Part shown: positions 31,989 to 45,806 of the stretch, one piece after another
Numbering within the stretch: position 1 is the first letter of the stretch
Layout of the letters: every line of letters begins with the position of its first letter
Source: Candidatus Nomurabacteria bacterium
Lineage (GTDB): Bacteria; Patescibacteriota; Minisyncoccia; Phycocordibacterales; JAACPR01
Direction of reading: 5' to 3'
DNA length: 64,000 nucleotides
Assembly (NCBI GenBank): GCA_020632215.1
Contig: JACKFZ010000001.1
Coordinates: 17,444 to 81,443 of the forward strand
Program-made: the position numbers and the translations under genes
The notes under the pieces: generated by a model
What the model saw: the letters and a program-made list of their open reading frames with translations, nothing else
Database searches by the model: none
What the model was told of the DNA's origin: nothing

Positions 31989-33150
31989 AGATACTGATTA
32001 TTTTTTCTATAGAAAAAGTAGAAAGAATTAAAACTAAAGGTATTATTGGGAGAGTATATCTTGGAAAAGGGAAAAGGACAATGTGCAGACACCAAAAGTA
32101 GAGAATGATAGATAGTGAAGAAAGAATAAAGATATTTTTTCTAAACCAATAAATTGAAGATAACATCAGAATGACCATTATGATGAAGAATATTTTATAA
32201 GCCCATATTAGTAAGTTAATCCAACTATGTGAGTTGGTTACTTCATTAGCTTGATAGCCACCGGCACCAGGATTCCAAAATAAATAAACATTTTTCAATT
32301 TAGCTTTTGCTAGGTCACCCAATCTCTGTTCCCCAACTGAAGATTTATCAAGATACTCAATAGTATTATTTGCTTTATTAAAAACGTGTGAAAGATTAGA
32401 AGCTATGGGAACAATTCGATCGAATTTTTGTTGTACATAAAAAGTCCAAGGTAATAGGACTACTATGGCCACTACTATTGATAGGATACCATTTTGAAAA
32501 TGTTTTTTGGTCCAAACAAAATTTTGAAATCTTTTCAGAATAAATAAACCGATTAGCATCCAAAGTGGTAGTAGTAATGCCACTGGCCTAGCTAGAATAG
32601 CCAATCCGATTGTTGCACCCGTAATAATTGCATTTATGAGAGATGGATCTTCTATAAATTTAAAGAAGAAAAAGACACTAGTGATTAAAAAGAATATAAA
32701 AACCATTTCCGAACTGATTAATAGGGAGTATAAGATCATGTATGGCCAAAACAAAACTATTATCCCGATTAATAAGCTTGTAACTTTTTTTAACTTGAAA
32801 AAATCGTAAGCAATGAAACTGCAGATAGATGCTATTGTTCCAGACAGTATAAATTGAAATAGAAAAACCATGGAGTAAACATGACCAAAGATGTAATAGA
32901 TAACTGATAGGAAGATGGGGTAAAGGGGAGGATAAATGATCTGTTGTTCTGAAATTGTGATGTATCCCTGTCCGTTGCTTAAAGCCACAGCAATATTGTC
33001 ATAGTCTAGAAAATCTGAAATGACAGGGAATTGAGGTAATATTTCTGTTAGTAAGAAACTGATCAGTATGGATAAGATAACAAATCCAATTGCAATTTTG
33101 ATTTTGGGCATATGAATTTTTAGTCTACATTTACGATAGAGGTAAAGCAA
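31954..33150 (-). CDS. polytopic membrane glycosyltransferase (GT39/GT83 ArnT/PMT-like)
   Basis: 398 aa and about 11 TM helices. N-terminal loop and topology resemble dolichyl/undecaprenyl-phosphate sugar transferases. Adjacent to GT2 and GtrA genes. Confidence 0.5.
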   Translation of the reverse strand: MLYLYRKCRLKIHMPKIKIAIGFVILSILISFLLTEILPQFPVISDFLDYDNIAVALSNGQGYITISEQQIIYPPLYPIFLSVIYYIFGHVYSMVFLFQFILSGTIASICSFIAYDFFKLKKVTSLLIGIIVLFWPYMILYSLLISSEMVFIFFLITSVFFFFKFIEDPSLINAIITGATIGLAILARPVALLLPLWMLIGLFILKRFQNFVWTKKHFQNGILSIVVAIVVLLPWTFYVQQKFDRIVPIASNLSHVFNKANNTIEYLDKSSVGEQRLGDLAKAKLKNVYLFWNPGAGGYQANEVTNSHSWINLLIWAYKIFFIIMVILMLSSIYWFRKNIFILSSLSIILYFWCLHIVLFPFPRYTLPIIPLVLILSTFSIEKIISIYVSKNTNIHTS

Positions 33151-33212
33151 GCAGTTCGATGTCGTAAAATAAAGAATTATTGTAAAGATTCGATATTAAA
33201 AAAAGTTTTTTA

Positions 33213-33229
33213 TGCTCCACGGGCAGGAT
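33213..33229. repeat. 17-bp direct repeat (attL-like) identical to the tRNA-Asn 3' end at 45049-45065
   Basis: tgctccacgggcaggat occurs at 33213-33229 and again at 45049-45065, where it forms the 3' end of the minus-strand tRNA-Asn. Confidence 0.65.
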
Positions 33230-33390
33230 GCCCTGAATCAAGTTCAGGGCAGGATTCTCATCCTGTCTCATAAAGTAAAAAAGCAAAACCCCAATGCTTG
33301 CGCATTAGGGCTTTACTTTTTTATGCTCCGCGAACTGAGACTAGTTCGAACCTTGATTTTATACTCAGAATCAGTAAAATTAGTCACACT

Positions 33391-33612
33391 ATGAAAACAA
33401 TCGCTCAATTTAAAGTTTTTAAAGATGGGGACTCCTATGTAGCAGAGGGTGTTGATTTAGCTGTGGTTACTCAAGCTGATGACTTAGATGAGCTTGTTAA
33501 AAACATCGAAGAGGCAGTATCTCTGCACTTAGAAGGTGAAAATTTCGCTGATTTTGATTACTCTCAAAAACCTTCTATTTTGGTAAATTACGAATTACCG
33601 CAGTATGCCTAA
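33391..33612 (+). CDS. hicB: HicB-family antitoxin (N-terminal domain only)
   Basis: IAQFKVFKDGDSYVAEGVDLAVVTQADDLDEL fits the UPF0150/HicB fold. It overlaps hicA by 8 nt. Start set at the internal ATG at 33391. Confidence 0.7.
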   Translation: MKTIAQFKVFKDGDSYVAEGVDLAVVTQADDLDELVKNIEEAVSLHLEGENFADFDYSQKPSILVNYELPQYA

Positions 33613-33847
33613 ATTAAAATCACTAGACTCCAAAGACATTATAAAAATCTTGGAGTCTTTTAGTTTTGAGGTAATTTCTCAAAAAGGAAGTCATATAAAA
33701 TTATCTCGCCAGACAAGTCTGCAAAAACAAGTCTTAACTATTCCAAATCATAAAAATTTGAAGAAGGGGACAGTGAAAGCTATTTTTAATCAAGCTAGTA
33801 AATTTGTGTCTAGTGAAGAATTGCAGAAATATTTTTACACAGAATAG
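33605..33847 (+). CDS. hicA: HicA-family mRNA interferase toxin
   Basis: 80 aa with the KGSHIKL (GSHxxL) YcfA/HicA motif. Confidence 0.7.
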   Translation: MPKLKSLDSKDIIKILESFSFEVISQKGSHIKLSRQTSLQKQVLTIPNHKNLKKGTVKAIFNQASKFVSSEELQKYFYTE

Positions 33848-34094
33848 TTCTTAACATGTTCTAGCTTGCTCGCTCTACAGGATGATTTTCTAACCATAGA
33901 TTGGTCCGAAGAATTTAAGTTTCCTAACTTGTCATTAGAAGAAATAAAAAGATTAATTGTTTTAATATAATATTAGTATCTTAACTATATGGTGTTTCCT
34001 GTTGATTACTCTCTATTCATTTTAATCAAACATGAGAAAATTAAACTGTAAAAAGAGAAAGAGCCCAAAATGGGCTCAATCTCTCGGTTAATAC

Positions 34095-34307
34095 TTACTG
34101 GTTATTTATCAGGTCATTTAGTGATTTGATATTGTTTTGTTTGAGATAAGTCCCAAGTTCCATATCAGATCTGACGCCTAAATTTATGCCATATTGTTTT
34201 TCTATAGTACCAATGTGAGTATCATTGCGTTTATCACGTAATAAACCGTTTTGGTTTCTAGATCGGCACCCTTTCATTCCAGCAGCATCATTTTTGCAAC
34301 GCTTCAT
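34095..34307 (-). CDS. hypothetical small basic protein
   Basis: 70-aa ORF inside the island. No motifs. Confidence 0.25.
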   Translation of the reverse strand: MKRCKNDAAGMKGCRSRNQNGLLRDKRNDTHIGTIEKQYGINLGVRSDMELGTYLKQNNIKSLNDLINNQ

Positions 34308-34531
34308 AGCGAATATCTTAAGTTACTTTAAGAAGGTTCGACTAATTCCTTCTGACTGCTAAATGCAGTCAGTTGTCAGCCGCATTTTGGTTGTCAAAAG
34401 GTGAATGTTGCAGTCTAATTATATCAAATTTTATTCCAGGGTACTTTTTGATGAGAAAGTAATAAATTTACTCTAAAATCGGTATAAATATTTTGTTATC
34501 TTAAAATGTAACCCTGTGCTATACTCTTTTA

Positions 34532-34738
34532 GTGACTAAAGAGTCAAAAAAGTTAGGGGAGAACTTCAAGAAATTCCGCATCGAGAAGGGATTATCTCAA
34601 AGTGATGTGGCTGATTCTTTGGGTATTAGTAGGGGATTTATAAGTAATATAGAGAGTGGTAAGAAAAATCCGACTCTGATTACTTTAACTAAACTTGCTA
34701 ACTCAGTCGGTATCTCCATAGATAAGCTTTTAAAATAA
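34532..34738 (+). CDS. XRE-family helix-turn-helix transcriptional regulator
   Basis: LSQSDVADSLGISRGFISNIESGKKNPTLITLTKLA is a canonical HTH_XRE. GTG start lies directly after a tatact -10 box, so the transcript is probably leaderless. Confidence 0.8.
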   Translation: MTKESKKLGENFKKFRIEKGLSQSDVADSLGISRGFISNIESGKKNPTLITLTKLANSVGISIDKLLK

Positions 34739-34743
34739 TCTAT

Positions 34744-37700
34744 ATGACAGTAATCACTAATTCACCAGGGAATACTCTTTCAGATAGTCTTAAATCTATA
34801 TTACCTCAATGTGATCGTGTTGATGCATTGGTCGGATATTTTTATTTTTCAGGATTTAAGGACTTATATAAAGATTTAGAGGATAAATCTATAAGAATTT
34901 TAGTCGGAATGGATATTGATAAGGAAATTATCAATAAGGTATCTCTGTTAGATGATTTAAATCTAGATAGTCATCTTGTTGATACAAAGATAAGTTCCAG
35001 ATCTGGTGCAAAGATAGATTATATAGATTCTTTTTCTAGAATCTTTAATGATACTGATCTGTTTGATAACAAAGAGTCCCAGGAAGCTTTTGAAGTGTTT
35101 TTGTCTAAAATAAAGGATGGGAGTCTTGAGATAAAAAAGACTGCAAGACCTGATCACTCAAAAAACTATATCCTTCATAAAAAAGCAGAACATACAGATG
35201 GTGGAAATGATCCTGGAGTTGTGATTGTCGGTTCAAGCAACCTATCTTTTTCTGGTCTTAAGGGACAAGGAGAATCAAATAGAATGTTAAAAGAAAAACA
35301 CTATTACGAAGAAGATGTCAAAAGATTTGAAGACGCATGGGATAATCCGGACAACATAACGATAACTGATATTGATAGTTCAGATGAATTTATTGCTGAA
35401 GTAAAAAAACGTATTTGGCTCTATCAATTACCCGATCCAAAGTTAATGTATTACCGGGTTCTTGATGAATATTTTTCGGTTGAAGAGACCGAGGACATGA
35501 AGACACCTAGACAGATTACAAACGGTAAGTTCTCTGATCTAAAATATCAAAAGGATGCTGTTAATTTAGGATTAGATCGTATCAAAAGATTCGGCGGGGT
35601 AATTATTGCTGATGTTGTGGGTCTTGGTAAGAGTATTATTGCATCTACTATTGCCCATAACTTAAACTTACAGACTGTAATTATTGCTCCACCTCACCTT
35701 GAGACACAATGGAAGGACTATCTTGCAGAGTTTGATTTTAAGGGTTCTGTTTACACAACAGGTAAGGTAGAAGAGGCCTTGCAACGACATGGCGATAAAG
35801 ATAATCTCCTAATTATTTTAGATGAAGCTCACAAACATAGAAATGAAGACACAGATAACTACAAAAATCTTCACAAGCTTTGTGCAGGTAATAGAGTTAT
35901 GGCTCTTTCGGCGACACCTTTCAATAATGATCCAAAAGATATTTATGCATTAATAAAGTTATTTAGCACTCCAGGACAATCAACTATTAAAACTGTAGAA
36001 AACTTAAGTATTTCTTTCCATGAATTATTTAAGAGATATCGAGATATCAGAAGAGAACTTAGAAAGTCAGCTGATAAGGATGCTTCCGAAGACTCACTAG
36101 AGATTAAGAAGGAGCTCAATTCTATAGCATCAGAATTAAGAAAAATGATAGAACCCTTAGTCATTAGGAGGTCCAGGTTAGATCTTGATGAGATTGAAGA
36201 TTACAAAAGGGATCTGGAAGAGCAGGGGGTAGCTTTTGCTAAAGTTAATGACCCAATTTTGCTTGAGTATGATTTAGGCGACATCACTTCTCTTTATGTG
36301 GAAACTTTGAATAAGATATCGTCCCCAGATGATAGTGATAGTTTTGAAGGTGTGCGTTACAAACCAGCTAGTTATATAAAAGCAGGCTCAAAGTTTATAA
36401 AAGAATTATTAGAGACCGAAGAAGATGATGATTCTGGTATGTCTGCGGAAGAAAAGTTACAGCGTATTATGCAAGGACAGTCTAACGTGGCTAAGTTTAT
36501 GAGGCGTTTATTGGTCCGAAGATTTGAGAGTTCAATGGGATCTTTTAGGGTGTCACTAAAGAATATGATAGCTTCTTCAGAAGCAATGCTTGACTGGTAT
36601 GATAACAGAGGTGTTGTACCTATTTATAAAAAGGGATCTCTGCCAACTACTAGTGATCTCGAAGATAAAACCCCAGAAGAATTAGATGATTTGTTCAACA
36701 AACTAAAAGGTAAAGGGTTAATTGAAATTCCAGTATCTGAAATACAGGATCATTTCAAAGGTGCACTTGAAAAAGACATATCAATACTTAAAGCAATCCA
36801 ATCTGATTGGGTCTCTGTTGAAGATGATCCTAAATATAAATTTTTTGAACAAAAAATTTCCGAGTCTTTGGCCAAAGAATCCAAGAGAAAAATTATTGTA
36901 TTTACAGAATTTTCAGATACAGCAGAGTATGTTTATGACAAATTAAAAGAAGATGGATTTACTAGAGTTTATAAATATAGTTCCGGAGATGCTTCTAAAG
37001 AAAACAAAGAGATTATTCAAAAGAACTTTGATGCAGGATTAGATCTTTCTAAACAAGACGATGATTACGACATAATCGTTGCAACAGATGCTATTTCAGA
37101 AGGTTTTAATCTTCATAGGGCTGGTACTGTGGTTAACTATGATATTCCTTATAATCCCACTAGAGTTATACAACGTGTAGGAAGAATCAATAGAATAAAT
37201 AAAAAAGTTTTTGAAGAACTTTTTATATTCAACTTTTTCCCAACGATGACAGGAGAAGTGGAGACTAGAACAAAAGCTATATCTACTCTGAAAATGGATT
37301 TGATACACTCTTTGCTTGGAGAAGATACTAAAATATTTACTAAGAATGAAGATCTACAGAATTACTTTGCTAAACAATATAGAGAAGAGCAAGATAAAAA
37401 TGAAAGCCTATCCTGGGATGCGAAATATCGAGATGAATGGAATAGGTTTAAAGATGATGAAAATATTCTTAGACAGATAGGATCTATACCGCATCGGGCT
37501 CGTATTGCTCGCAAATTTAAAGTATCTGGGGTGGTTGCCTTCGCAAAGAGAAATGGCAACTTCGTTTTTGCATTTGGAAAGACTCCAGAAGATGTAGCTA
37601 TAGTCTCTCCAGAAGTAGCATTACCGTTGTTCAATGACATTATAGATGATGAAGAGGCAATAGAAACAACGGTGGATTTTGATCCAATATACCAAATTGT

Positions 37701-38037
37701 TAAAGAGCATATATTTAAAGATAATACAAAAGCTCCGGTAAGTGGTAAAAGAAAACAAGATGCAATTGCTAAGTTAAAAATTCTCTCTGAAACTTATCCA
37801 AGTTCAAAAGATTTATGTATGGATGTTATTAAAATTATTAAAGACCTGGATGCTCTACCTAATGGTGTTTTGAAAGAGATTGCAGATTTGAAAATTGATA
37901 AAGATAAACCAGAAAAGGCATACAAGAGTCTAAAAGAATATGTACCAAGTAATTATCTTGAAGATATATTTGAAACTGCTGATAGAGCTAAAGATTCTGG
38001 TAAGTTAGTTGTTCTTTCGGAAGAATTGATATCATGA
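34744..38037 (+). CDS. PLD-family nuclease / SNF2-family helicase fusion protein
   Basis: N-terminal PLD-like HKD-type motif (HSKNYIL...VVIVGSSNLS, i.e. HxK...GSxN). SNF2 motifs I ADVVGLGKSIIA, II IILDEAHKHRN (DEAH), III ALSATPFNN, and helicase-C motifs V/VI (IIVATDAISEGFNLH, QRVGRINRINK). 1097 aa. Confidence 0.85.
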   Translation: MTVITNSPGNTLSDSLKSILPQCDRVDALVGYFYFSGFKDLYKDLEDKSIRILVGMDIDKEIINKVSLLDDLNLDSHLVDTKISSRSGAKIDYIDSFSRIFNDTDLFDNKESQEAFEVFLSKIKDGSLEIKKTARPDHSKNYILHKKAEHTDGGNDPGVVIVGSSNLSFSGLKGQGESNRMLKEKHYYEEDVKRFEDAWDNPDNITITDIDSSDEFIAEVKKRIWLYQLPDPKLMYYRVLDEYFSVEETEDMKTPRQITNGKFSDLKYQKDAVNLGLDRIKRFGGVIIADVVGLGKSIIASTIAHNLNLQTVIIAPPHLETQWKDYLAEFDFKGSVYTTGKVEEALQRHGDKDNLLIILDEAHKHRNEDTDNYKNLHKLCAGNRVMALSATPFNNDPKDIYALIKLFSTPGQSTIKTVENLSISFHELFKRYRDIRRELRKSADKDASEDSLEIKKELNSIASELRKMIEPLVIRRSRLDLDEIEDYKRDLEEQGVAFAKVNDPILLEYDLGDITSLYVETLNKISSPDDSDSFEGVRYKPASYIKAGSKFIKELLETEEDDDSGMSAEEKLQRIMQGQSNVAKFMRRLLVRRFESSMGSFRVSLKNMIASSEAMLDWYDNRGVVPIYKKGSLPTTSDLEDKTPEELDDLFNKLKGKGLIEIPVSEIQDHFKGALEKDISILKAIQSDWVSVEDDPKYKFFEQKISESLAKESKRKIIVFTEFSDTAEYVYDKLKEDGFTRVYKYSSGDASKENKEIIQKNFDAGLDLSKQDDDYDIIVATDAISEGFNLHRAGTVVNYDIPYNPTRVIQRVGRINRINKKVFEELFIFNFFPTMTGEVETRTKAISTLKMDLIHSLLGEDTKIFTKNEDLQNYFAKQYREEQDKNESLSWDAKYRDEWNRFKDDENILRQIGSIPHRARIARKFKVSGVVAFAKRNGNFVFAFGKTPEDVAIVSPEVALPLFNDIIDDEEAIETTVDFDPIYQIVKEHIFKDNTKAPVSGKRKQDAIAKLKILSETYPSSKDLCMDVIKIIKDLDALPNGVLKEIADLKIDKDKPEKAYKSLKEYVPSNYLEDIFETADRAKDSGKLVVLSEELIS

Positions 38038-41000
38038 TTGATTTTAGTAAACCTTACAAAAAAGAAATATTTTCTAATTTCCTTGAGGATTTTCTCCCGG
38101 AAGATTATTCAGAAAAAGAAAAAGAGTTATCCGAGATTTCTGGATGCCAAATAATAAAAGATGTAAAAGAAGTAGGGTATTGTGAATCGCTAGATCTTAC
38201 TGTTTTTGAGATGAGCCATGACAAAGAGACCGATCCCAGAGTTACTATTGCTACAGATGCTTTCAAAATAATGAAGAATTACGATGTTCAAAGAGCTTTG
38301 GTTGTATTCAAGAATGATGATACTGAGAACTATAGGTTTTCATATTTAACTATTGCTTTAGAATTGAGTAAGGGAAGTAAGGTGAAAAAAACGTATTCAA
38401 ATGCACGTAGGTATTCTTTTATACTTGGTCCTGGTGCAAAGATTAAAACACCAGATCAACAATTGGTAGGGAAAGGTAGAGTCAAAGACCCTGATGATTT
38501 ACTAGATAGATTCTCACTAGAAGTAGTCAATAAGCAATTCTATCTAGACATAGCTGATTTTTTTGATGAACTTGTAGATGATAATGAAGTATTGGTACTG
38601 CCAGGCAATGATCACAATTTAAAAAAGAATTTTTCTGTGAGACTTATAGGTCGTATTATGTTTTGTTGGTTTTTAAAACAGAAGTTGTCGAGTGCAGGAC
38701 AACTTGTTCCAGATGAAATATTGTCGTCCCAATCTGTAAAAAAAGATTATTATCATAATGTTCTTGAGCGTCTCTTTTTTGAAGTCTTGAACACAAATAT
38801 TGAGGATAGGGATATAAGAGATAGCTATTTTGACAAGGTCCCTTATTTGAATGGTGGTTTATTTAACCCCGGACCTGATGATTTTTATGATTTGGATAGA
38901 TCCACTTTCAATTCTAAATTTTTCGATAGTTTAAAAATTAATGATGAGTGGTTCAAAGATTTTTTTACACTTCTTGAGACTTATAATTTCACAATTGATG
39001 AGAATACTATTTTCGATCAAGAACTTTCAGTCGATCCTGAAATGCTTGGTCGGATATTCGAGAATCTTCTAGCTGAAATAAATCCAGAAACTGGTACTAG
39101 TGAGAGAAAGAGGACTGGGAGCTATTATACTCCACGCCATATTGTTGAATATATGGTTGATCAATCGTTGTTAGAGTATTTCAAAAAGAAGACAGTTTTA
39201 TCAGAAAATAAAATATCTGCATTGATAAGTTACGATCAATTAGATGATCCCGAATACTTACTCAGTGATTCTGAAAAGGAACAAGTCGTGCAAGCGGCTA
39301 ATCTTTTAAGAATTTTAGACCCCGCTTGTGGTTCCGGTGCTTTTCCTATAGGTATACTTCAAAAAATTGTCTACATTTTACAAGTAGTGGATTCAACAGG
39401 AGAGTTGTGGAGGAATAAAAAATTAGAAAAGATTCCAGAATTATATAGACAAAAGATTGAACAAGAGTTTGGATTCAGAACGCTAGATTATATTCGAAAA
39501 TTAGAAGTCATAAAAAATTCAATATTCGGTGTAGATAATCAATCTATTGCTGTTGAAGTGTCTCGCTTACGTTGTTTTTTAACTCTAGTTGTGGAATCTG
39601 AAATTGATGACTCAAAAAAAAATAGAGGTATAGAATCTCTCCCGAATCTAGATTTTAAGTTTGTGTGTGCAAATACTCTTATTCCTGCTCCTGAAGAAAG
39701 TGATACTGAGACGAATAAACTTTTTAGTGACGAATTCCAAGAGAGGTTGGCAAGTTCAATTGATAGGTACTTTAGTTCTACTGGTGAAAATAAAAGATCT
39801 GCAAACAATGAGATCCATAAACTTATTGATGGAAAAGTAGAAGAAAAAATGCGTCACCTTAATCAACTCGTTTCTTACAATGGAGATCAAAAAGTAGAAA
39901 TAGCAATGGCAAGAAATAATAAAAATCAAATCGATGAACACTCCCGGATACTAAATTTATGGGATAGCTACAAAAATATTTTTGAAAATAAACCAGTTGA
40001 TTTTTTTGATGTGAGATACTTTTTCCCTGACGTAAAAGATGGATTTGATATTGTGATAGGGAATCCTCCGTACGGCATACTTAATAAAAAACAAAACAAA
40101 AGTAAGAGTATCGTTGTTACTAGTTCCGAATTAGATTATTTTAAACATTCTAAAAAGTACAAAGCTGCTAAGGGAGGAATGCTTAACATTTTCAGACTAT
40201 TTATTGTTAGAAGTCTGGATCTTCTTAAGAACGATGGTATTTTTGTTGAAATATTTCCACTTGCTTTTGTCTGTGATTTGACCGCAGTTAATCTTAGGAA
40301 ATTTATTCTCGAAGATACGCAACCTATATCAATTGACGCTTTTCCAGAAAGAGATAATCATAAAAAACGCGTTTTTGAGGCTGTGAAGATGTCAGTTTGT
40401 ATACTGATCACCAGAAAAAGCGCTCCCAAAGAACCATTTTCTCTAAGAATAAATAAGGATAAATTTATTGATTATAGTACACAAAAAACATATCTGGATT
40501 TGAATAAGATTAAAGTTCTGGATGATAAAAATTACAGTATACCTTTAGCATCATCAATTGAGACGGAGCTTCTTACAAAAATTTATCTGAACAGTTACAA
40601 ATTTTCAAAAATTGGAACATGTAATACTGGTGAGATTGATATGACTTTCTGTAAAGAGGCATTTACAGCAGATTCTAAAAATACTCCATTACTTAAAGGT
40701 GCAATAATTGATAGGTATGTCTTAAGAAAAAAAATGAGTCAAGGAGAAATTGTCTATATTGATGAAGAAAAGCTTTCAAAAATAAGAACTATTGATACTG
40801 ATTTAAAAATAAAACCGAGGATTGTGCTACAAGGAATTACTGGTGTAAATGAAAAGTTACGTTTAAAGATGATGATTATAAGTGAGGCTTATTGTGCTAA
40901 TTCACTAAATTATTTAAATTTTAAATCAGAGAGCGAGAATTTGAGATTTATGTTAGGGCTCTTTAATAGCAAAGTCATGAACTTTGTCTTTTCTAGGTTT

Positions 41001-41228
41001 AGTACAAACAGTAATGTTAATGGTTATGAGATTAATAATTTACCAATACCAAAGAAAACTAATCCAGAAATTATTAATAAAATCTCAGATTATGTAGCCC
41101 AGATTATTAGTGATAAAGCTGGAGATGATGTTAAGGATACTTCCGAGTTAGAATGTGAGGTAAACGATCTAGTGATGGATTTATATGATTTAAACGATGA
41201 AGAAAAGGATGTTATAAGAAAAAGTTAG
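38034..41228 (+). CDS. Eco57I/PglX-like gamma-class N6-adenine DNA methyltransferase with its own TRD
   Basis: GSYYTPRHIV, LDPACGSGAFP (motif I), IGNPPYG (motif IV NPPY) and the C-terminal LYDLNDEEKDVI motif typical of Type IIG/PglX/DrmMI-class enzymes. Start overlaps the upstream stop (ATGA). 1064 aa. Confidence 0.85.
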   Translation: MIDFSKPYKKEIFSNFLEDFLPEDYSEKEKELSEISGCQIIKDVKEVGYCESLDLTVFEMSHDKETDPRVTIATDAFKIMKNYDVQRALVVFKNDDTENYRFSYLTIALELSKGSKVKKTYSNARRYSFILGPGAKIKTPDQQLVGKGRVKDPDDLLDRFSLEVVNKQFYLDIADFFDELVDDNEVLVLPGNDHNLKKNFSVRLIGRIMFCWFLKQKLSSAGQLVPDEILSSQSVKKDYYHNVLERLFFEVLNTNIEDRDIRDSYFDKVPYLNGGLFNPGPDDFYDLDRSTFNSKFFDSLKINDEWFKDFFTLLETYNFTIDENTIFDQELSVDPEMLGRIFENLLAEINPETGTSERKRTGSYYTPRHIVEYMVDQSLLEYFKKKTVLSENKISALISYDQLDDPEYLLSDSEKEQVVQAANLLRILDPACGSGAFPIGILQKIVYILQVVDSTGELWRNKKLEKIPELYRQKIEQEFGFRTLDYIRKLEVIKNSIFGVDNQSIAVEVSRLRCFLTLVVESEIDDSKKNRGIESLPNLDFKFVCANTLIPAPEESDTETNKLFSDEFQERLASSIDRYFSSTGENKRSANNEIHKLIDGKVEEKMRHLNQLVSYNGDQKVEIAMARNNKNQIDEHSRILNLWDSYKNIFENKPVDFFDVRYFFPDVKDGFDIVIGNPPYGILNKKQNKSKSIVVTSSELDYFKHSKKYKAAKGGMLNIFRLFIVRSLDLLKNDGIFVEIFPLAFVCDLTAVNLRKFILEDTQPISIDAFPERDNHKKRVFEAVKMSVCILITRKSAPKEPFSLRINKDKFIDYSTQKTYLDLNKIKVLDDKNYSIPLASSIETELLTKIYLNSYKFSKIGTCNTGEIDMTFCKEAFTADSKNTPLLKGAIIDRYVLRKKMSQGEIVYIDEEKLSKIRTIDTDLKIKPRIVLQGITGVNEKLRLKMMIISEAYCANSLNYLNFKSESENLRFMLGLFNSKVMNFVFSRFSTNSNVNGYEINNLPIPKKTNPEIINKISDYVAQIISDKAGDDVKDTSELECEVNDLVMDLYDLNDEEKDVIRKS

Positions 41229-41232
41229 AGTT

Positions 41233-41814
41233 TTATTCTGAAACATTGTATTTTTTTGAAGTAGCTGGAAATTCATAGGTTAGTTTAAGAAGCATTTCTG
41301 AAAAAGATATTAAGTCCTTGGCCTCCTCCTCAGACATTATTAAGATCTCGTGGTTTGCTTCATTGCCTTTTTTTCTAATATGATCAACCCATCCTCTTGC
41401 ATCAGGTGGGACGTAATTATTGCTAGATAAAAATTCAACGTATTCCACAAAACTTTTTCCTTCTTCGGCACCTTTCGATACTGAGATATGCATCAAGAGC
41501 TTTCTGCAACATAAGACTGTCGCTGTAAAAGCATTATTGGAAAAACTGCCCCTGGCTTCTTGGTATAGATGCTTAACTTTTTCATCGTCAATACCCAACA
41601 CATCATCCCCAAACTTACTTCCTGGAGTTTGTTTATCGTTAACATCAAAAAAAGTCGGTTTCTGACAATGATGACAGATATATATAAAAGCTGATTGTCC
41701 AGTATGACTATTTTTTGCTGAATATGCCTTTTCAGACGCCAAAGGTCGGCTACAAAATCCACATGTGTAACTTTTAGAAGATACTGTTTGTATATGAGCC
41801 CATTCCAGTTTCAT
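41233..41814 (-). CDS. DUF4145-domain protein with N-terminal CxxC...CxxC zinc ribbon
   Basis: CGFCSRP...CHHCQKP zinc ribbon, then ATVLCCRKLLMHIS...GWVDHIRKKGNEANHE, which matches the DUF4145 pattern often found with restriction and abortive-infection systems. Confidence 0.55.
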   Translation of the reverse strand: MKLEWAHIQTVSSKSYTCGFCSRPLASEKAYSAKNSHTGQSAFIYICHHCQKPTFFDVNDKQTPGSKFGDDVLGIDDEKVKHLYQEARGSFSNNAFTATVLCCRKLLMHISVSKGAEEGKSFVEYVEFLSSNNYVPPDARGWVDHIRKKGNEANHEILIMSEEEAKDLISFSEMLLKLTYEFPATSKKYNVSE

Positions 41815-41857
41815 ATCTTAATTTTATCATAAAATAAAAAGAATTTAATTCTCTGTT

Positions 41858-41995
41858 TTTCTCGGTCACAACTTCTAGGAAAATATCGGAATTTAAGGGT
41901 TAGTAATGGTCGGGTTTTGTCGGGTAATATTATACGGTTTTATACGGTAAATTCTCGGATTTTCTCGGACAACAATTATCGGAAATTGTCGGAAA
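41858..41995. repeat. iteron-like array of ~10 short direct repeats (consensus t-tcgg-a/g/t, ~10-13 bp spacing)
   Basis: ttctcggtcaca, atatcggaat, tggtcgggtt, ttgtcgggta, tatacggttt, tatacggtaa, ttctcggatt, ttctcggaca, ttatcggaaa, ttgtcggaaa. Confidence 0.45.
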
Positions 41996-42715
41996 AATAT
42001 TAATTTGCAAAAGCTGCTAATATGGCAGAGGCTACAAACAATAGAAGTAGTATTTTAGAGTAATCTTTCTTTATTTGGTACTTTTCGGGGACATGTAAGC
42101 CAAATATGAAGCCTGAAAATAAGATTCCTACTATTGCTCCCATACATACTCCTGCTAAATACATTAATGTCATATGCCTAGTATTTTTATTTTTTAAATA
42201 ATTAGGCTTTCACACAAAAAGCCCGCCACGGATAGAGGCCGAACCTCTCGTACCAGTTTCCTGATACGGCCTATCAAGCAAACCCCATGACGGGTTCTTT
42301 ATGCTTGATAGGACTTTCTTACCGTGCCAAATAAAATTTGGGTTAGGCAATATTATTATTCAGTTGTCCATTCATTCTAACATGTATATCAGAAACACCC
42401 TATGGTCCTTATTTTAAGCCTTTTAATAAAACGATATCGTTTATGTGTCAATGATTATTTACGATATCGTGGATAAAGTCTTAGACCAAAAAACTGTTTT
42501 CTAATACGTTCTAGATACTGAGGGTAATATGTTTGCATTTCCTTTAAAAGAAGAAGATTTCATTACAGATGGCATAGTTAAGTTTTTTGACTTGCTATCT
42601 AGTTTTGACTACGAAGATAAATTAAAAGAAAGATCAGGGTATGATTCCGTTTCCTTAGATCCATCCCCTAGGGACTCGGAATTAGATTCTGATCCTGGGT
42701 GCTAATTATATAAAA

Positions 42716-43510
42716 ATGGGAAAAGGGATGGAAAAAGTAAAATATACAAAAGAATTTAAGAACTGGGTTCCTTTGCAAAGAGACCTTGCTGCTGATAAAA
42801 GAAATGGCAAGATTAGCAAGGGAGAATACGACCTGTATGTTTGGATGAAAACGATCACAAATCTTGAAGGGATAGCCATTGTGAGTTTGGACTCACTTTG
42901 TGAGGATGTTTTTTCAAATCGTGTTAAGAGGAATTATGTGAATCAACTACTTTTGTCACTCAAAGCTAAGAGGTACATATACTATTATCCTAGATCCGGC
43001 AAGAAAGGTTCTTTTGATGTCCATTTTGATAAAATCTTTATATCTGGCGGTATTCTAAAGAATATTGATAGTTTTTTTGACACAGAAAATAATGGCTTTT
43101 CTAATGTTAGACCTCATCAAGAAACAGAGGTTAGTAAGAGCCCTGGTAATGTTTGTAAGAGGTTGTTCGATGAAGAAACTATAAATAAACGTGATATTTT
43201 AGAGAAATTTACAGAAGGAGTAAGAGGTTACGGAAGATATAACGATAACGATACTGATAATAAAGATCGATTATATAAAAATAAAATTACTGTGAGTAAC
43301 TATGATCCACAGATTCCAGAGGAAAAGCTGTGCTTGGTAATTGCAAAAAGGATTGGAGAAAAAAATATGGACTTTATCTTATCAATACTCAAGAAACATG
43401 GAATTGATGTAATTAATCAGGCTTATGAAATTTTTGAGAGAAAAATTAGTGAAGATATAAAAAATCCACCCGCGTATTTCAATGCAATTATTAAAGATTT
43501 GGTAAAATAA
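42716..43510 (+). CDS. hypothetical island protein (possible Rep/DNA-binding protein adjacent to iterons)
   Basis: 264 aa with no clear motifs. Function is inferred only from its position between the iteron-like array and the recombinase. Confidence 0.35.
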   Translation: MGKGMEKVKYTKEFKNWVPLQRDLAADKRNGKISKGEYDLYVWMKTITNLEGIAIVSLDSLCEDVFSNRVKRNYVNQLLLSLKAKRYIYYYPRSGKKGSFDVHFDKIFISGGILKNIDSFFDTENNGFSNVRPHQETEVSKSPGNVCKRLFDEETINKRDILEKFTEGVRGYGRYNDNDTDNKDRLYKNKITVSNYDPQIPEEKLCLVIAKRIGEKNMDFILSILKKHGIDVINQAYEIFERKISEDIKNPPAYFNAIIKDLVK

Positions 43511-43515
43511 AAAAT

Positions 43516-45090
43516 ATGAAAACTATAATCTATGCAAGAGTCTCGTCTAGAGAACAGGAGGATACCGGATATTCTTTAGATGCTCAAGAAAAACTATTGA
43601 AAGAATATTCAAAGAAGAAGGGTTTAAATGAAATTAAAACTTTCAAGATTACCGAATCTGCTAGTGGTAGACAGATACGAAAAACTTTTAATGAAATGCT
43701 TCAGTATGCTGATAAGAATAAGGTAGATATCATTCTCTGTGAAAAAATAGATAGATTGACTAGAAATCTAAAGGATGCGGCTGTAATAAGCGATTGGATA
43801 CAAGAAGATGAAAAACATGAAGTTCATTTTGTAAAAGAGAATTTTATTGTAAATAAAAATACTAGAGCCCATGAAAACTTGGTTTGGGATATGAAGGTGG
43901 CTATTGCCAGGTTTTATACAAACAATCTCTCTGAAGAAGTAAGAAAAGGCCAAAAAGAAAAGATTGCACAGGGTTGGCTACCGACTAAACCACCACTTGG
44001 GTATAAAACTGTGGGAGAAAAAGGTCATAAGATCCATGTGATCGAACAACCAACTGCTTCTTACGTCCAGAAAGCTTTTGAATACTATGGGTCCAGTAAT
44101 AATTCTATTACTGCTGTAACAGAAAAATTATACGAAGATGGTTTGAGGACCAGGGCTGGCGGCAAGGTGGCTAGAAGTAGGATTGAGGTTATGCTAAAAG
44201 AACCTTTCTATTACGGTGCTATGAGATGGAATGATCAAGTGTATTCTGGCAGGCATGAACCTTTAATAACCAAAGAGCTGTTTGATAAGGTCCAGAATTT
44301 ACTGACTAGGAAAAAAGTTCCTCACTACAAGAGTCACAGCTTTATGTTTAGGAAGCTACTTACTTGCGGAGAGTGCGAAGGAACTATTACAGGAGAAATT
44401 CAAAAGGGAATTATTTATTACCACTGCAATCATTATAGAAAGTGTAGTCAAAAAGCTTATGCTCCAGAAAAAGTCGTGGAAGAACAAATTATGGGAGTAT
44501 TTAAGTTCTTTGAGTCGATAACCGAAAAAGAAGCAGAGCAGATTAAGTCTAAAATTCGCCAAAATCACGCTCAAGAAATCGAATATAAAGAGAAGGCATT
44601 AGATGGTCTTAATAATCGCTACAAGGCATTACAGAAGCGTCTGGATGTACTCTACAACGATAGGCTGGATGAACGAATATCTCTAAATATGTGGGAGATA
44701 AAAAATAAAGAGATTGTTGGAGAACAAGAGGAGATCCAAAATCAAATTAAGAAAATGAAAACAGAAGAAGCTAAATACTTTGAAATTTGGCTAAATATTT
44801 TAGATCTTGCACGGAGAGCAAGAGAAATTTATGAAAAAAGATCTCCAGAAGAGAAGAGATTGCTACTAAATTATATTTTTTCGAACCTAACTTTAAAAGA
44901 CAAAAAAGTTATATATTCTTTGACAAAACCAGTAGAGGTATTGGCTAAAAGGGTCCAGGAGAAGTTGGATGCTGAAAAGAGTTTCGAACTAAAAAAAACC
45001 TTTGTAAAACAAAGACGAAATAAGGATTTAGTAGGGGTTTCTACTGCTCTGCTCCACGGGCAGGATTCGAACCTGCAACCAATCGATTAA
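43516..45090 (+). CDS. large serine recombinase (resolvase/invertase N-domain, recombinase domain, zinc ribbon, coiled coil)
   Basis: IIYARVSSREQ catalytic Ser region. Recombinase domain with a CGECEGT...YYHCNHYRKC zinc ribbon, then a long coiled coil. 524 aa. The 3' end overlaps the tRNA-Asn. Confidence 0.85.
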   Translation: MKTIIYARVSSREQEDTGYSLDAQEKLLKEYSKKKGLNEIKTFKITESASGRQIRKTFNEMLQYADKNKVDIILCEKIDRLTRNLKDAAVISDWIQEDEKHEVHFVKENFIVNKNTRAHENLVWDMKVAIARFYTNNLSEEVRKGQKEKIAQGWLPTKPPLGYKTVGEKGHKIHVIEQPTASYVQKAFEYYGSSNNSITAVTEKLYEDGLRTRAGGKVARSRIEVMLKEPFYYGAMRWNDQVYSGRHEPLITKELFDKVQNLLTRKKVPHYKSHSFMFRKLLTCGECEGTITGEIQKGIIYYHCNHYRKCSQKAYAPEKVVEEQIMGVFKFFESITEKEAEQIKSKIRQNHAQEIEYKEKALDGLNNRYKALQKRLDVLYNDRLDERISLNMWEIKNKEIVGEQEEIQNQIKKMKTEEAKYFEIWLNILDLARRAREIYEKRSPEEKRLLLNYIFSNLTLKDKKVIYSLTKPVEVLAKRVQEKLDAEKSFELKKTFVKQRRNKDLVGVSTALLHGQDSNLQPID

Positions 45091-45122
45091 CAGTCGACTG
45101 CTCTACCATTGAGCTACCGTGG
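45051..45122 (-). tRNA. tRNA-Asn (anticodon GTT)
   Basis: The reverse complement folds as a cloverleaf. Acceptor tccacgg/ccgtgga, D-arm gctc-aatggta-gagc, anticodon stem gtcga/tcgat with loop ctGTTaa, T-arm tgcagg-ttcgaat-cctgc. Discriminator g; CCA is not encoded. Confidence 0.8.
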
Positions 45123-45206
45123 AATATAGTTCTCTATAAGTGAACTAGTCAGAAATATTAACAACATTATGGCTTGATGTCTAGTTTTTTGGATTACACA
45201 TAAAGG

Positions 45207-45806
45207 TTGTATAATGAGTATATGATGAATAAAAGAAGTTGGATTTGGGCCATTGTAATAGTTTTGATTGTAATTTTGTCTTTTGTAAAAATTGCACATA
45301 GCCCCAAGACTGATGATGAAGATTTTAAAAATAATTTAGAAAAAAATATGGCGTTACAAATATCTAGTCCTCAATTTGAAGATGGCGGGAACATTCCATC
45401 CAAATATACATGTGATGGAGATAATACTAATCCAGAATTTAATATGAATGGGGTACCAGAAGGAGCTATCTCTCTAGCTTTAATCATGGATGATCCAGAT
45501 GTACCAACAAATTTGAGAGAAGACGGTATGTGGGATCATTGGATTGTTTTTAATATTCCTCCGCAGACGACCAAGGTTGATGAAAATAGTGAACCTGAAG
45601 GTGTTCATGGTAGTGGAACTGCAGGTAATGCAAACTATCGTGGCCCATGTCCTCCAGACAGAGAGCATCGATATTTCTTCAAACTGTATGCTCTAGATAC
45701 AATGCTCGATCTTCCAGAAGGTGTTTCTAAAAAAGAAGTGGAAGATGCAATGAAAGGACACATCATTGAACAGGCAGAGTTGGTGGGTAAGTATAACAAG
45801 AAATAA
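45207..45806 (+). CDS. YbhB/YbcL-family PEBP (Raf kinase inhibitor-like) protein with N-terminal membrane anchor
   Basis: GPCPPDREHRYFFKLYALD is the bacterial PEBP signature. Confidence 0.7.
   Translation: MYNEYMMNKRSWIWAIVIVLIVILSFVKIAHSPKTDDEDFKNNLEKNMALQISSPQFEDGGNIPSKYTCDGDNTNPEFNMNGVPEGAISLALIMDDPDVPTNLREDGMWDHWIVFNIPPQTTKVDENSEPEGVHGSGTAGNANYRGPCPPDREHRYFFKLYALDTMLDLPEGVSKKEVEDAMKGHIIEQAELVGKYNKK

Follow-up and report, generated by a model that had tools for sequence, protein, structure and literature searches.

A translationally coupled PLD-SNF2 ATPase and N6-adenine methyltransferase pair on a serine-recombinase island of Candidatus Nomurabacteria is a probable two-subunit restriction-modification system

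The window analyzed here, a 64,000-nucleotide stretch of a Candidatus Nomurabacteria genome, contains a small mobile island on which two overlapping genes probably encode a two-subunit ATP-dependent restriction-modification (R-M) system, carried as cargo of a serine-recombinase element. The upstream gene (34744-38037, 1097 aa) specifies a nuclease and a motor, and the downstream gene (38034-41228, 1064 aa) a methyltransferase with a recognition domain. The TGA stop of the first overlaps the ATG of the second in an ATGA at the junction ...TCATGATT..., so that both the open reading frames and the overlap of the sequence-only reading were reproduced. Two open reading frames of more than 1,000 codons with these domain matches are not expected by chance in a genome with a GC content of 33%. 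The pair is best read as resembling a split Type ISP enzyme in which the nuclease and the motor have been swapped. We regard it as a single R-M unit because the genes are coupled, the motifs are intact, the synteny is conserved, the recognition domain is variable and no other conserved partner was seen.

The product of the first gene (R subunit, 34744..38037, + strand) consists of a PLD nuclease domain, a SNF2 ATPase and a C-terminal domain; judged from its motifs, it carries one half of a PLD active site joined to an intact SNF2 motor. The N-terminal domain (34744..35433, +) contains one HKD motif (H138-x-K140, GSSN163-166). Its match to PLDc_2 (1e-5, 25.8 bits) is slightly below the Pfam gathering score of 27 bits. 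H138, K140, S164, N166, and E177 are invariant in 54 relatives with identities down to 29%, as is the whole of GSSN163-166, and this invariance argues for a working nuclease. An AlphaFold model of 270 aa (pLDDT 73.7) gave SauUSI (7clg, E 6.5e-6) as the top PDB match, followed among the best by BfiI and NgoAVII-R, with Zucchini and NucT also matched. The invariant residues and the modelled fold thus back the assignment as a PLD nuclease domain despite the sub-threshold profile score, and bear out the HKD-like N terminus proposed earlier.

The ATPase core (35536..37338, +) is of the SNF2 type within SF2 and comprises an N-lobe, an insert of ~ 210 aa and a C-lobe, as supported by Helicase_C (5e-19), SNF2-rel_dom (1e-11), and ResIII (1e-7). 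GLGKS293, DEAH360, and SATP389 in the N-lobe and QRVGR810 in the C-lobe are intact, with the Walker A, Walker B and motif VI sequences invariant, and the core is therefore complete, as had been claimed. Its sequence matches in the PDB are Chd1, ISWI, and RapA. The best helicase models in PADLOC and NCBIfam are DrmD-type and score far below cut-off, and the PADLOC PLD_Helicase model aligns with the C-lobe only. The remaining ~ 230 aa (37339..38034, +) form a conserved domain with a window-averaged identity of 0.60-0.75 to close relatives and no Pfam match even at E up to 10; it may serve as a docking or coupling domain. No modified-base reader domain was recognizable in this protein with Pfam, also when relaxed to E up to 10. 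Conservation along the entire motor protein is 0.5-0.9 in the relatives compared.

The second protein (M/S subunit, 38034..41228, +) contains an N-terminal domain, a helical spacer, a gamma-class N6A methyltransferase and a target-recognition domain (TRD), and matches Eco57I (1e-24), N6_Mtase, TaqI_C (4e-5), and MmeI_hel (2e-4) in Pfam. The methyltransferase core (38991..40433, +) includes an insert of ~ 180 aa, and its motif order, YYTP364, DPACGSG429, NPPY677, identifies a gamma-class enzyme. DPACGSG and NPPY are intact and invariant, and the sole PDB sequence match of the core is the TaqI methylase. The spacer (38445..38981, +) is like that of MmeI and the N-terminal domain of HsdM. The C-terminal, TaqI_C-like TRD (40434..41225, +) is hypervariable: across 117 relatives, identity is 0.18-0.39 here vs. 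0.5-0.9 over residues 41-560. TIGR02987 covers residues 619-1062 with 164 bits. Sequence comparison thus shows that this N6-adenine methyltransferase is of the gamma class and has a recognition domain of its own, as the earlier reading had it, and that this domain evolves fast. That reading had also placed the enzyme in an Eco57I/PglX/DrmMI family, of which the Eco57I-type gamma class stands; the PADLOC scores, however, place it far nearer to Type IIG, MmeI-like enzymes (REase_MTase_IIG, 230 bits) than to DrmMI (49 bits) or PglX (44 bits).

Only from residue 156 onward is the methylase covered by the Type IIG profile, and residues 1-155 had no nuclease family match even at E up to 10. The N-terminal alpha/beta domain (residues 1-135; 38034..38438, +) has weak similarity to the restriction-endonuclease-like fold. 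The conserved catalytic triad is absent, and across 54 diverse members only G48, R101, S103, and R126 are kept, none of which is an acidic or lysine residue of a catalytic site. This agrees with the proposal that the methyltransferase lacks a recognizable nuclease domain, although the topology may hide an unorthodox active site.

The family is large and extends over many bacterial phyla and one archaeon. Of 80 genome loci, 66 have a methylase gene on the same strand as the PLD-SNF2 gene. All 25 loci flanked by 5 kb or more on each side are among these, so the search for syntenic occurrences called for in the sequence-only reading returned the two genes together wherever both flanks reached that length. 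Each of the 14 genome loci without a methylase has a flank of < 2 kb on one or both sides. Pairing was also seen in viral and proviral loci with a full-length relative, except in a few that are truncated by the end of the contig. Helicase and methylase similarities co-vary across loci (Spearman rho 0.60, p 1e-7), and in pairs on shared contigs the helicases are 66-79% identical and the methylases 44-63%. Gene layout and synteny thus show the two genes to be translationally coupled and co-inherited across many phyla. No conserved third gene was found in the related loci compared; in some of them, genes common in Type I R-M operons are inserted (Schlafen/AlbA_2-HATPase_c_4, DUF1016/YhcG, DUF4268). 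The pair displays the classical R-M trait of a methyltransferase co-inherited with a nuclease, with a variable specificity element beside a conserved motor.

Type ISP enzymes have the same parts in the same order: nuclease, SF2 ATPase, gamma-class N6A methyltransferase and C-terminal recognition domain. They are, however, one polypeptide rather than two coupled genes, their N-terminal nuclease is Mrr-type PD-(D/E)xK rather than a single-HKD PLD domain, and the SNF2-type motor of the pair is another difference. The N-terminal alpha/beta domain and MmeI-like spacer are further additions in the methylase of the pair. By analogy, the pair would also be expected to behave alike, with an asymmetric site left hemimethylated, translocation driven by ATP, and cutting that requires two enzymes. 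In the mechanism that we propose, the methylase would bind a short, probably asymmetric site and methylate one adenine with AdoMet. Because there is a single methyltransferase domain, sites would be left hemimethylated, by analogy with MmeI, Type ISP enzymes, BREX, and MANTIS. At an unmethylated site, the methylase would instead recruit or activate the PLD-SNF2 subunit, likely through its N-terminal and helical domains and the C-terminal domain of the motor; we infer such contact solely from the coupling of the genes. The motor would then hydrolyze ATP and translocate on double-stranded DNA. With one HKD motif per polypeptide, cutting should need two paired nuclease domains. The two could belong to a permanent dimer of the kind formed by SauUSI and MtsD, or they could meet when two complexes that approach each other collide; Type ISP enzymes, which cleave after translocation and collision, follow the second course. 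Restriction would favor unmodified sites in inverted orientation, so that hemimethylated host DNA would be spared after replication. Both hemimethylation and site-orientation dependence are proposed here from analogies; MtsD is a dimer forming one PLD active site, and MANTIS restriction is stimulated by inverted sites. The division of labor suggested earlier, in which the methylase marks self DNA and the PLD-bearing SNF2 translocase restricts, is supported by the synteny, the lack of a conserved third gene and the hypervariable TRD beside a conserved motor.

Single modules or pairs of modules recur in other systems. SauUSI (Type IV) resembles the first protein in having an N-terminal PLD nuclease followed by a SF2 helicase-like ATPase, but it is autonomous and attacks modified DNA through its own C-terminal modified-cytosine reader, whereas in the pair the methylase takes over recognition and unmodified DNA is the predicted target. 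Type IIG/IIL enzymes of the MmeI family share the helical spacer, gamma-class methyltransferase and recognition domain of the second protein. MmeI cuts without ATP via its own N-terminal PD-ExK domain, at a position where the methylase of the pair has no conserved catalytic residues; in the pair, a separate, ATP-dependent PLD-SNF2 partner always lies next to the methylase. With no active N-terminal PD-(D/E)xK nuclease in evidence, we rejected assignment of the methylase as a canonical Type IIG/IIL enzyme. One could still suppose that two independent systems lie side by side, namely an autonomous Type IIG (MmeI/Cj0031-like) enzyme and a SauUSI-like Type IV enzyme directed against modified DNA. 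The Type IIG REase-MTase fusions as best PADLOC models of the methylase, the weak restriction-endonuclease-like fold at its N terminus and SauUSI as the top structural match of the PLD model all lean that way, but the missing catalytic residues, the start of the Type IIG profile after a stretch devoid of nuclease matches and the lack of a recognizable modified-base reader in the first protein speak against it, and the ATGA coupling and synteny in 25/25 loci argue for a single unit. We consider two separate systems quite improbable. Type III systems (Mod and Res) also combine a sequence-reading methylase and a helicase-nuclease subunit in one operon. The modules of the pair all belong to other families than these, Mod being a methylase of the beta class whose recognition domain is internal and Res a helicase of the Rad25 type that carries a PD-(D/E)xK nuclease.

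DISARM class 1 likewise combines DrmD, a SNF2 helicase, with the PLD nuclease DrmC and the Eco57I-type N6A methylase DrmMI, and further comprises DrmA and DrmB (DUF1998). Neither DrmA nor DrmB lies near the pair in the window, its PLD and SNF2 modules are fused, its methylase is nearer to Type IIG enzymes than to DrmMI, and the DrmD equivalog NF038317 scores 140.7 bits on the first protein vs. a cut-off of 610 bits; we therefore rejected DISARM class 1. BREX was rejected as well, since PglZ and BrxC were not found near the pair in the window or among the families listed for neighbors in related loci and the PglX equivalog NF033452 gives the methylase 51.7 bits vs. a 500-bit cut-off. MANTIS (Gao_RL, BR type-2) is similar in that an N6A methylase marks self and the effector joins an N-terminal PLD domain to an SF2/SNF2 helicase; its MtsD, which is like SauUSI, dimerizes to form a single PLD site. 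MANTIS has four genes, however, and requires the DUF499 AAA+ ATPase MtsA and the small MtsB, which are absent from the island in the window and have no equivalent in a conserved partner cluster in related loci. On the NCBIfam PLD anti-phage model NF042964, which we take to be linked to MtsD, the first protein scores 116 bits vs. a cut-off of 1100 bits, consistent with a like architecture but not with orthology. We find it unlikely that a BREX-, DISARM- or MANTIS-like system is present here in incomplete or helper-dependent form, with an AAA+ loader or DrmA/B-like factors encoded elsewhere, or that the pair blocks phage replication without cutting. DrmD does provide the best named helicase models (NCBIfam, 141 bits; PADLOC, 1.7e-32), purified MtsD has not yet been seen to cut DNA in vitro, and a helper encoded elsewhere is conceivable because the MANTIS methylase is inactive without an AAA+ loader and needs both MtsA and MtsB. 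Yet the scores are far under the curated cut-offs (DrmD, 141 vs. 610; PglX, 52 vs. 500), and the invariant HKD residues favor a working nuclease. DUF499, PglZ, BrxC, and DrmA/B (DUF1998) were not seen near the pair in the window, and the listing of families for 56 large neighboring proteins in related loci, which gives the 25 most common ones, contained none of them, in line with the previously reported absence of DrmA, DrmB, PglZ, and BrxC. The methylase is moreover MmeI-like with its own recognition domain, and such methylases are known to bind and methylate DNA unaided. Its Pfam matches are of the Eco57I, N6_Mtase and MmeI types only, without the DUF1156 domain by which BR methylases are described (NAR 2026).

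That the main role is not host defense but that of an addiction or competition module of a mobile element, or of an epigenetic regulator, appears very unlikely. The pair does lie on an island with a serine recombinase and a neighboring tRNA gene, close relatives adjoin serine recombinases, terminase-like or ParB-methylase genes, and full-length relatives are present on ~ 45 IMG/VR contigs. Many members, however, are in chromosomal settings resembling defense islands, near OLD-like/AAA_15, GmrSD, TIR, and type III CRISPR genes, and the question bears on selective benefit rather than mechanism, as R-M systems of mobile elements commonly do both.

In the libraries and literature searched, the family goes under generic names only, and no experimental account of any member was found in that literature. 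To this extent the description of the pair as an undescribed system stands, but the family is very widespread, PADLOC includes an 'HKD+Snf2' model, and MANTIS/BR type-2 has a comparable PLD-helicase effector. The pairing of PLD-SNF and Type II RM genes was noted in passing in 2023 (PMC9881135, Table 3).

The neighbors of the pair on the island were located as described earlier. A 68-aa XRE/HTH_3 regulator gene (34532..34738, +; HTH_3 8e-17; PADLOC Control_protein 4e-12, HTH_VI 1e-15) stops 5 nt short of the start codon of the PLD-SNF2 gene. It is not conserved in the wider family but recurs upstream of the pair in two loci, with 54% identity and directly upstream in L088 and with 40% identity in L056. 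The protein is a probable R-M controller (C) protein by sequence, and would delay nuclease expression in a new host. We treat three further genes as neighbors outside the module: HicA (33605-33847, Pfam), ORF264, for which neither the genome nor the viral loci compared yielded a relative, and a DUF4145 gene. The last (41233..41814, -; 193 aa; DUF4145 3.6e-9; PADLOC PD-T7-4 5e-7) is convergent with the methylase gene, had no relative in 80 genome loci or 53 viral loci, and is a candidate separate defense gene. In addition to these, a large serine recombinase (43516..45090, +; Resolvase, Recombinase, Zn_ribbon_recom) marks the right end of the island, where the 3′ end of its gene overlaps a tRNA-Asn (45051-45123, -). 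Housekeeping genes follow past both ends.

The two genes, both on the plus strand, encode a PLD-SNF2 protein of 1097 aa (34744-38037) and a methylase of 1064 aa (38034-41228). At their junction, TCATGATT, the stop codon of the PLD-SNF2 gene and the start codon of the methylase gene overlap, as a sequence-only reading had it; the two genes are translationally coupled. We consider it probable that the pair is a two-subunit ATP-dependent R-M system, a reading based on intact catalytic motifs in both proteins, the coupling, the co-inheritance of the two genes and the variable recognition domain of the methylase.

In Pfam, the PLD-SNF2 protein matched Helicase_C (5e-19) and SNF2-rel_dom (1e-11) as well as ResIII and PLDc_2, the last at 1e-5 with 25.8 bits, where the gathering score is 27. 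The PLD assignment is secure despite this sub-threshold score because residues of the HKD region are invariant and a model of the domain has structural matches. Among 54 aligned full-length relatives (at least 29% identity), H138, K140, S164, N166 and E177 were invariant and G163 and S165 nearly so, and the best PDB matches of an AlphaFold model of residues 1-270 (pLDDT 73.7) were SauUSI, an ATP-dependent restriction enzyme, followed by BfiI, NgoAVII-R, Zucchini and NucT. An N-terminal PLD domain fused to an SNF2 ATPase, as first read from the sequence, thus holds. The SNF2 motifs GLGKS293, DEAH360, SATP389 and QRVGR810 are intact and conserved in the protein and its relatives, and its sequence neighbours in PDB were Chd1, ISWI and RapA. 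A PLD active site is made of two HKD halves, as described for BfiI and for MtsD, the PLD-helicase effector of the MANTIS system; our protein has only one HKD motif. Residues ~866-1097 are conserved among relatives, and the C-terminal domain and the helicase insert gave nothing credible in Pfam at E up to 10. In PADLOC the top match was the model 'HKD+Snf2' (8.9e-33, residues 10-838).

The methylase matched Eco57I (1e-24), N6_Mtase, TaqI_C and MmeI_hel in Pfam, and its motifs follow the gamma-class order (YYTP364, DPACGSG429, NPPY677). Its top PADLOC models were Type IIG REase-MTase fusions, which scored 230 bits and aligned only from residue 156. DrmMI (49 bits) and PglX (44 bits) were far below this, and the PglX/DrmMI-like assignment given earlier is corrected accordingly. 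The protein could easily be annotated, in error, as a complete Type IIG enzyme. In a model of residues 1-340 (pLDDT 85), residues 1-135 form an alpha/beta domain, after which comes a helical domain; the N-terminal domain had no credible match in Pfam at E up to 10. In the alpha/beta domain, G48, R101, S103 and R126 were the only positions conserved among 54 diverse members of the family, and no D...(D/E)xK was conserved. From these alignments we conclude that the methylase probably lacks a conserved active nuclease, in line with the initial failure to recognise a nuclease domain in it.

At least 592 stretches were confirmed as relatives of the PLD-SNF2 protein in a pattern scan that took one genome from each species. 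An exhaustive HMMER search at E up to 1e-30 yielded 908 clusters (50% identity), and the full-length matches listed aligned nearly end to end down to ~32% identity. Synteny and taxonomy were surveyed in the best 80 of the at least 592 genome loci. These came from Bacteroidota, Ignavibacteriota, many Patescibacteria, Clostridia, Spirochaetota, Proteobacteria, Thermus, Chloroflexota, Planctomycetota, Nitrospirota, Aquificota and one Methanosarcinaceae archaeon. Of the 80, 66 had a methylase homologue on the same strand, which lay downstream in 57 of them, upstream in eight and ambiguously in one; in each of the other 14, the sequence extended for less than 2 kb to one side or to both. Where at least 5 kb was available on both sides, the methylase was present in 25 of 25 loci. 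The similarities of helicase and methylase co-varied across loci (rho 0.60, p 1e-7). The syntenic occurrences that the sequence-only reading had proposed to look for therefore exist, and the pair is one co-inherited unit. Clustering of all neighbouring ORFs revealed no third conserved gene: the next clusters, in at most seven loci, were serine recombinases, Schlafen/AlbA_2-HATPase_c_4 proteins and DUF1016/YhcG, the latter two being gene kinds often found inside Type I R-M operons. The most frequent Pfam families of 56 large neighbours did not include DUF499, PglZ or DUF1998, which agrees with the claim that DrmB (DUF1998) and PglZ are absent; scattered among these neighbours were AAA_15/OLD-like, GmrSD and UvrD-type helicase defence genes. 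About 45 IMG/VR contigs carried a full-length relative, nearly all together with a methylase. Helicase matches in the phage collection were partial only, and six near-full-length relatives came from the plasmid collection, of which the two whose records were inspected carried generic annotation.

The cultured gut bacterium Parabacteroides distasonis has a pair with 43% identity (WP_009274870.1 and WP_009274871.1) in a plasmid record (NZ_OY725763.1; L085, 7177-20998), with an HTH regulator and a gene annotated 'RNA-binding domain-containing protein' upstream and a TIR-domain protein and an AAA protein downstream, a defence-island-like setting. In a Thermales variant, seen in Thermus thalpophilus (L025, 5781-13405) and on an Allomeiothermus silvanus plasmid (L086), the methylase lies upstream and is only ~790 aa long, and one or two extra ORFs of 290-340 aa, which may be a split-off recognition domain, precede the PLD-SNF2 gene. 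In Anaerolinea thermolimosa (L028, 5388-18361) the order is methylase, DUF4268 gene and PLD-SNF2, followed directly by two RAMP-family genes and a 993-aa protein without Pfam match; this looks like a type III CRISPR-Cas neighbourhood. Neighbourhoods of this kind may be why the PADLOC 'HKD+Snf2' model stands among identifiers that include Cas models.

Close relatives differed along the two proteins. In 40-residue windows, identity was even across the motor (0.5-0.9) and was 0.47-0.90 over methylase residues 41-560; over most of residues 680-1064, including the recognition region, it was as low as 0.18-0.39. On shared contigs, helicases were 66-79% identical whereas methylases were 44-63% identical, and methylase relatives often had ~60% identity confined to the first 70-75% of the protein. 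Judged from these alignments, a conserved motor with a variable recognition region is the pattern that would be expected from diversifying specificity with constant restriction machinery. Methylases of this kind are enriched for programmed inversions (PMC9881135), and we therefore searched for spare recognition-domain cassettes. There was no second recognition-domain copy in the 64-kb window by tblastn and no long inverted repeat in 32800-45600, and on both counts we rejected recognition-domain shuffling at this locus.

Three multi-gene systems share parts with the pair. MANTIS (Gao_RL, BR type-2), a four-gene system, has the same effector architecture, but the pair is without its DUF499 ATPase and small partner and its methylase belongs to a different family. 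DISARM class 1 has three domain types in common with the pair, which however lacks DrmA and DrmB and reached only 141 bits with the DrmD model against a cut-off of 610. For BREX, the PglX model gave 52 bits against a cut-off of 500. A PLD anti-phage protein model gave 116 bits against 1100 with the PLD-SNF2 protein. Because of the missing components and scores far below the cut-offs, the pair is, on the defining features tested, not a member of MANTIS, DISARM class 1 or BREX. Its closest functional counterpart would be a Type ISP enzyme divided between two genes, in which PLD takes the place of the Mrr nuclease and SNF2 that of the motor.

By analogy with Type ISP enzymes, SauUSI and MtsD, we infer that the methylase would read a short asymmetric site and methylate one strand. 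At an unmodified site it would engage the PLD-SNF2 subunit, which would then translocate on ATP. Cutting would require the pairing of two HKD domains, so that inverted unmodified sites would be favoured; MtsD is a dimer forming one PLD site, and restriction by MANTIS is stimulated by inverted sites. We consider it about as likely as not that the pair stands for a widespread but so far nameless class of ATP-dependent R-M system in which an MmeI-like methylase without an AAA+ loader directly guides a single-HKD PLD-SNF2 translocase, a minimal form of the methylation-guided PLD-helicase restriction of MANTIS and DISARM carried in CPR lineages as cargo of serine-recombinase elements.

BREX, DISARM and MANTIS all join a methylase to helicase or nuclease effectors but depend on additional ATPases, the functions of which are still under study. 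With only two genes, a natural version would offer the simplest setting in which to learn how site recognition by a methylase reaches a PLD-helicase effector, and it could be used to ask directly whether a two-site rule is enforced by single-HKD dimerisation. Candidatus Nomurabacteria and related CPR lineages have small genomes, for which 6.5 kb of mobile cargo is a sizeable defence investment. The pair is unsurprising in principle, since R-M modules are known to shuffle. The earlier description of it as undescribed holds in part: in open-access text we came across neither a name nor a defining description nor an experiment for the two-gene system, but the PLD-SNF2/methylase pairing has been seen before in print (PMC9881135, Table 3) and PADLOC carries its 'HKD+Snf2' model. 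The open-access literature on COG1002 with COG0553, cd09178 and HKD/Snf2/Eco57I likewise yielded no named system, and labels in the scanned libraries and the source names seen were generic only ('helicase-related protein', 'Eco57I methylase domain-containing protein'). The pair is common and under-annotated and is a useful minimal model for methylase-guided PLD-helicase restriction; the annotation of defence systems and of methylomes would gain from its recognition.

An island of ~12 kb (roughly 33.2-45.1 kb) carries the pair. Glycosyltransferase and polysaccharide genes lie to the left of the island and, to its right, tRNA-Asn and genes for a PEBP-family protein, a ribosome-associated S30AE-family protein, cyclophilin, formyltransferase, peptide deformylase, a PriA-like protein and MreB. 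A search of 32800-45600 for att-type direct repeats gave only short, low-identity matches, and the island limits therefore rest on gene content and the tRNA. The 3' end of a large serine recombinase gene (43516-45090, plus strand) overlaps by ~40 nt the tRNA-Asn gene located by tRNA search (45051-45123, minus strand), which fits an element that integrated at or into this gene. Gene content, recombinase and tRNA-Asn bear out the mobile-island setting described previously, with its DUF4145 protein, TA pair and XRE regulator. Relatives at 69-74% identity are also near serine recombinases, with ParB-methylase and terminase-like genes.

The XRE gene (34532-34738, plus strand) ends 5 nt before the PLD-SNF2 start and matches R-M control proteins in PADLOC; homologues lie directly upstream of the pair in two other loci (L088, 54% identity; L056, 40%). 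The palindrome TGACTaaagAGTCA (34533-34546) overlaps its predicted GTG start, just 3' of a TATACT -10-like hexamer. It may be a binding site of the XRE protein, and we take it to resemble the GACT...AGTC operator boxes of R-M controller proteins. In the region 33298-33847, a HicA toxin gene (33605-33847, 2e-15) is overlapped and preceded by a 104-aa ORF with a faint HicB-like antitoxin match (E 0.015), an antitoxin-first order that is the reverse of the usual hicAB order; we treated both as neighbours only. The DUF4145 gene (41233-41814, minus strand) and the methylase gene converge, their stop codons being 4 nt apart, and the DUF4145 protein weakly matched the PADLOC single-gene PD-T7-4 defence model (5e-7). 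Neither it nor ORF264, a 264-aa ORF with nothing credible in Pfam at E up to 10, had a relative in the 80 genome loci or in 53 viral loci, and both were rejected as module parts. The DUF4145 gene does not accompany the pair elsewhere and so probably represents an independent defence gene that shares the island.

A LOOT RNA (Rfam RF03000; 42234-42349, minus strand) lies in the ORF-free stretch that separates the DUF4145 gene from the ORF264 and serine recombinase genes. It scored 80 bits, the gathering score being 46, and a terminator-like hairpin (42224-42204) comes immediately after its 3' end. The same RNA family adjoins large serine recombinase genes in two related elements that also carry the PLD-SNF2/methylase pair (L003, 3508-3638; L087, 983-1119), which suggests that LOOT RNA belongs to mobile elements of this kind.
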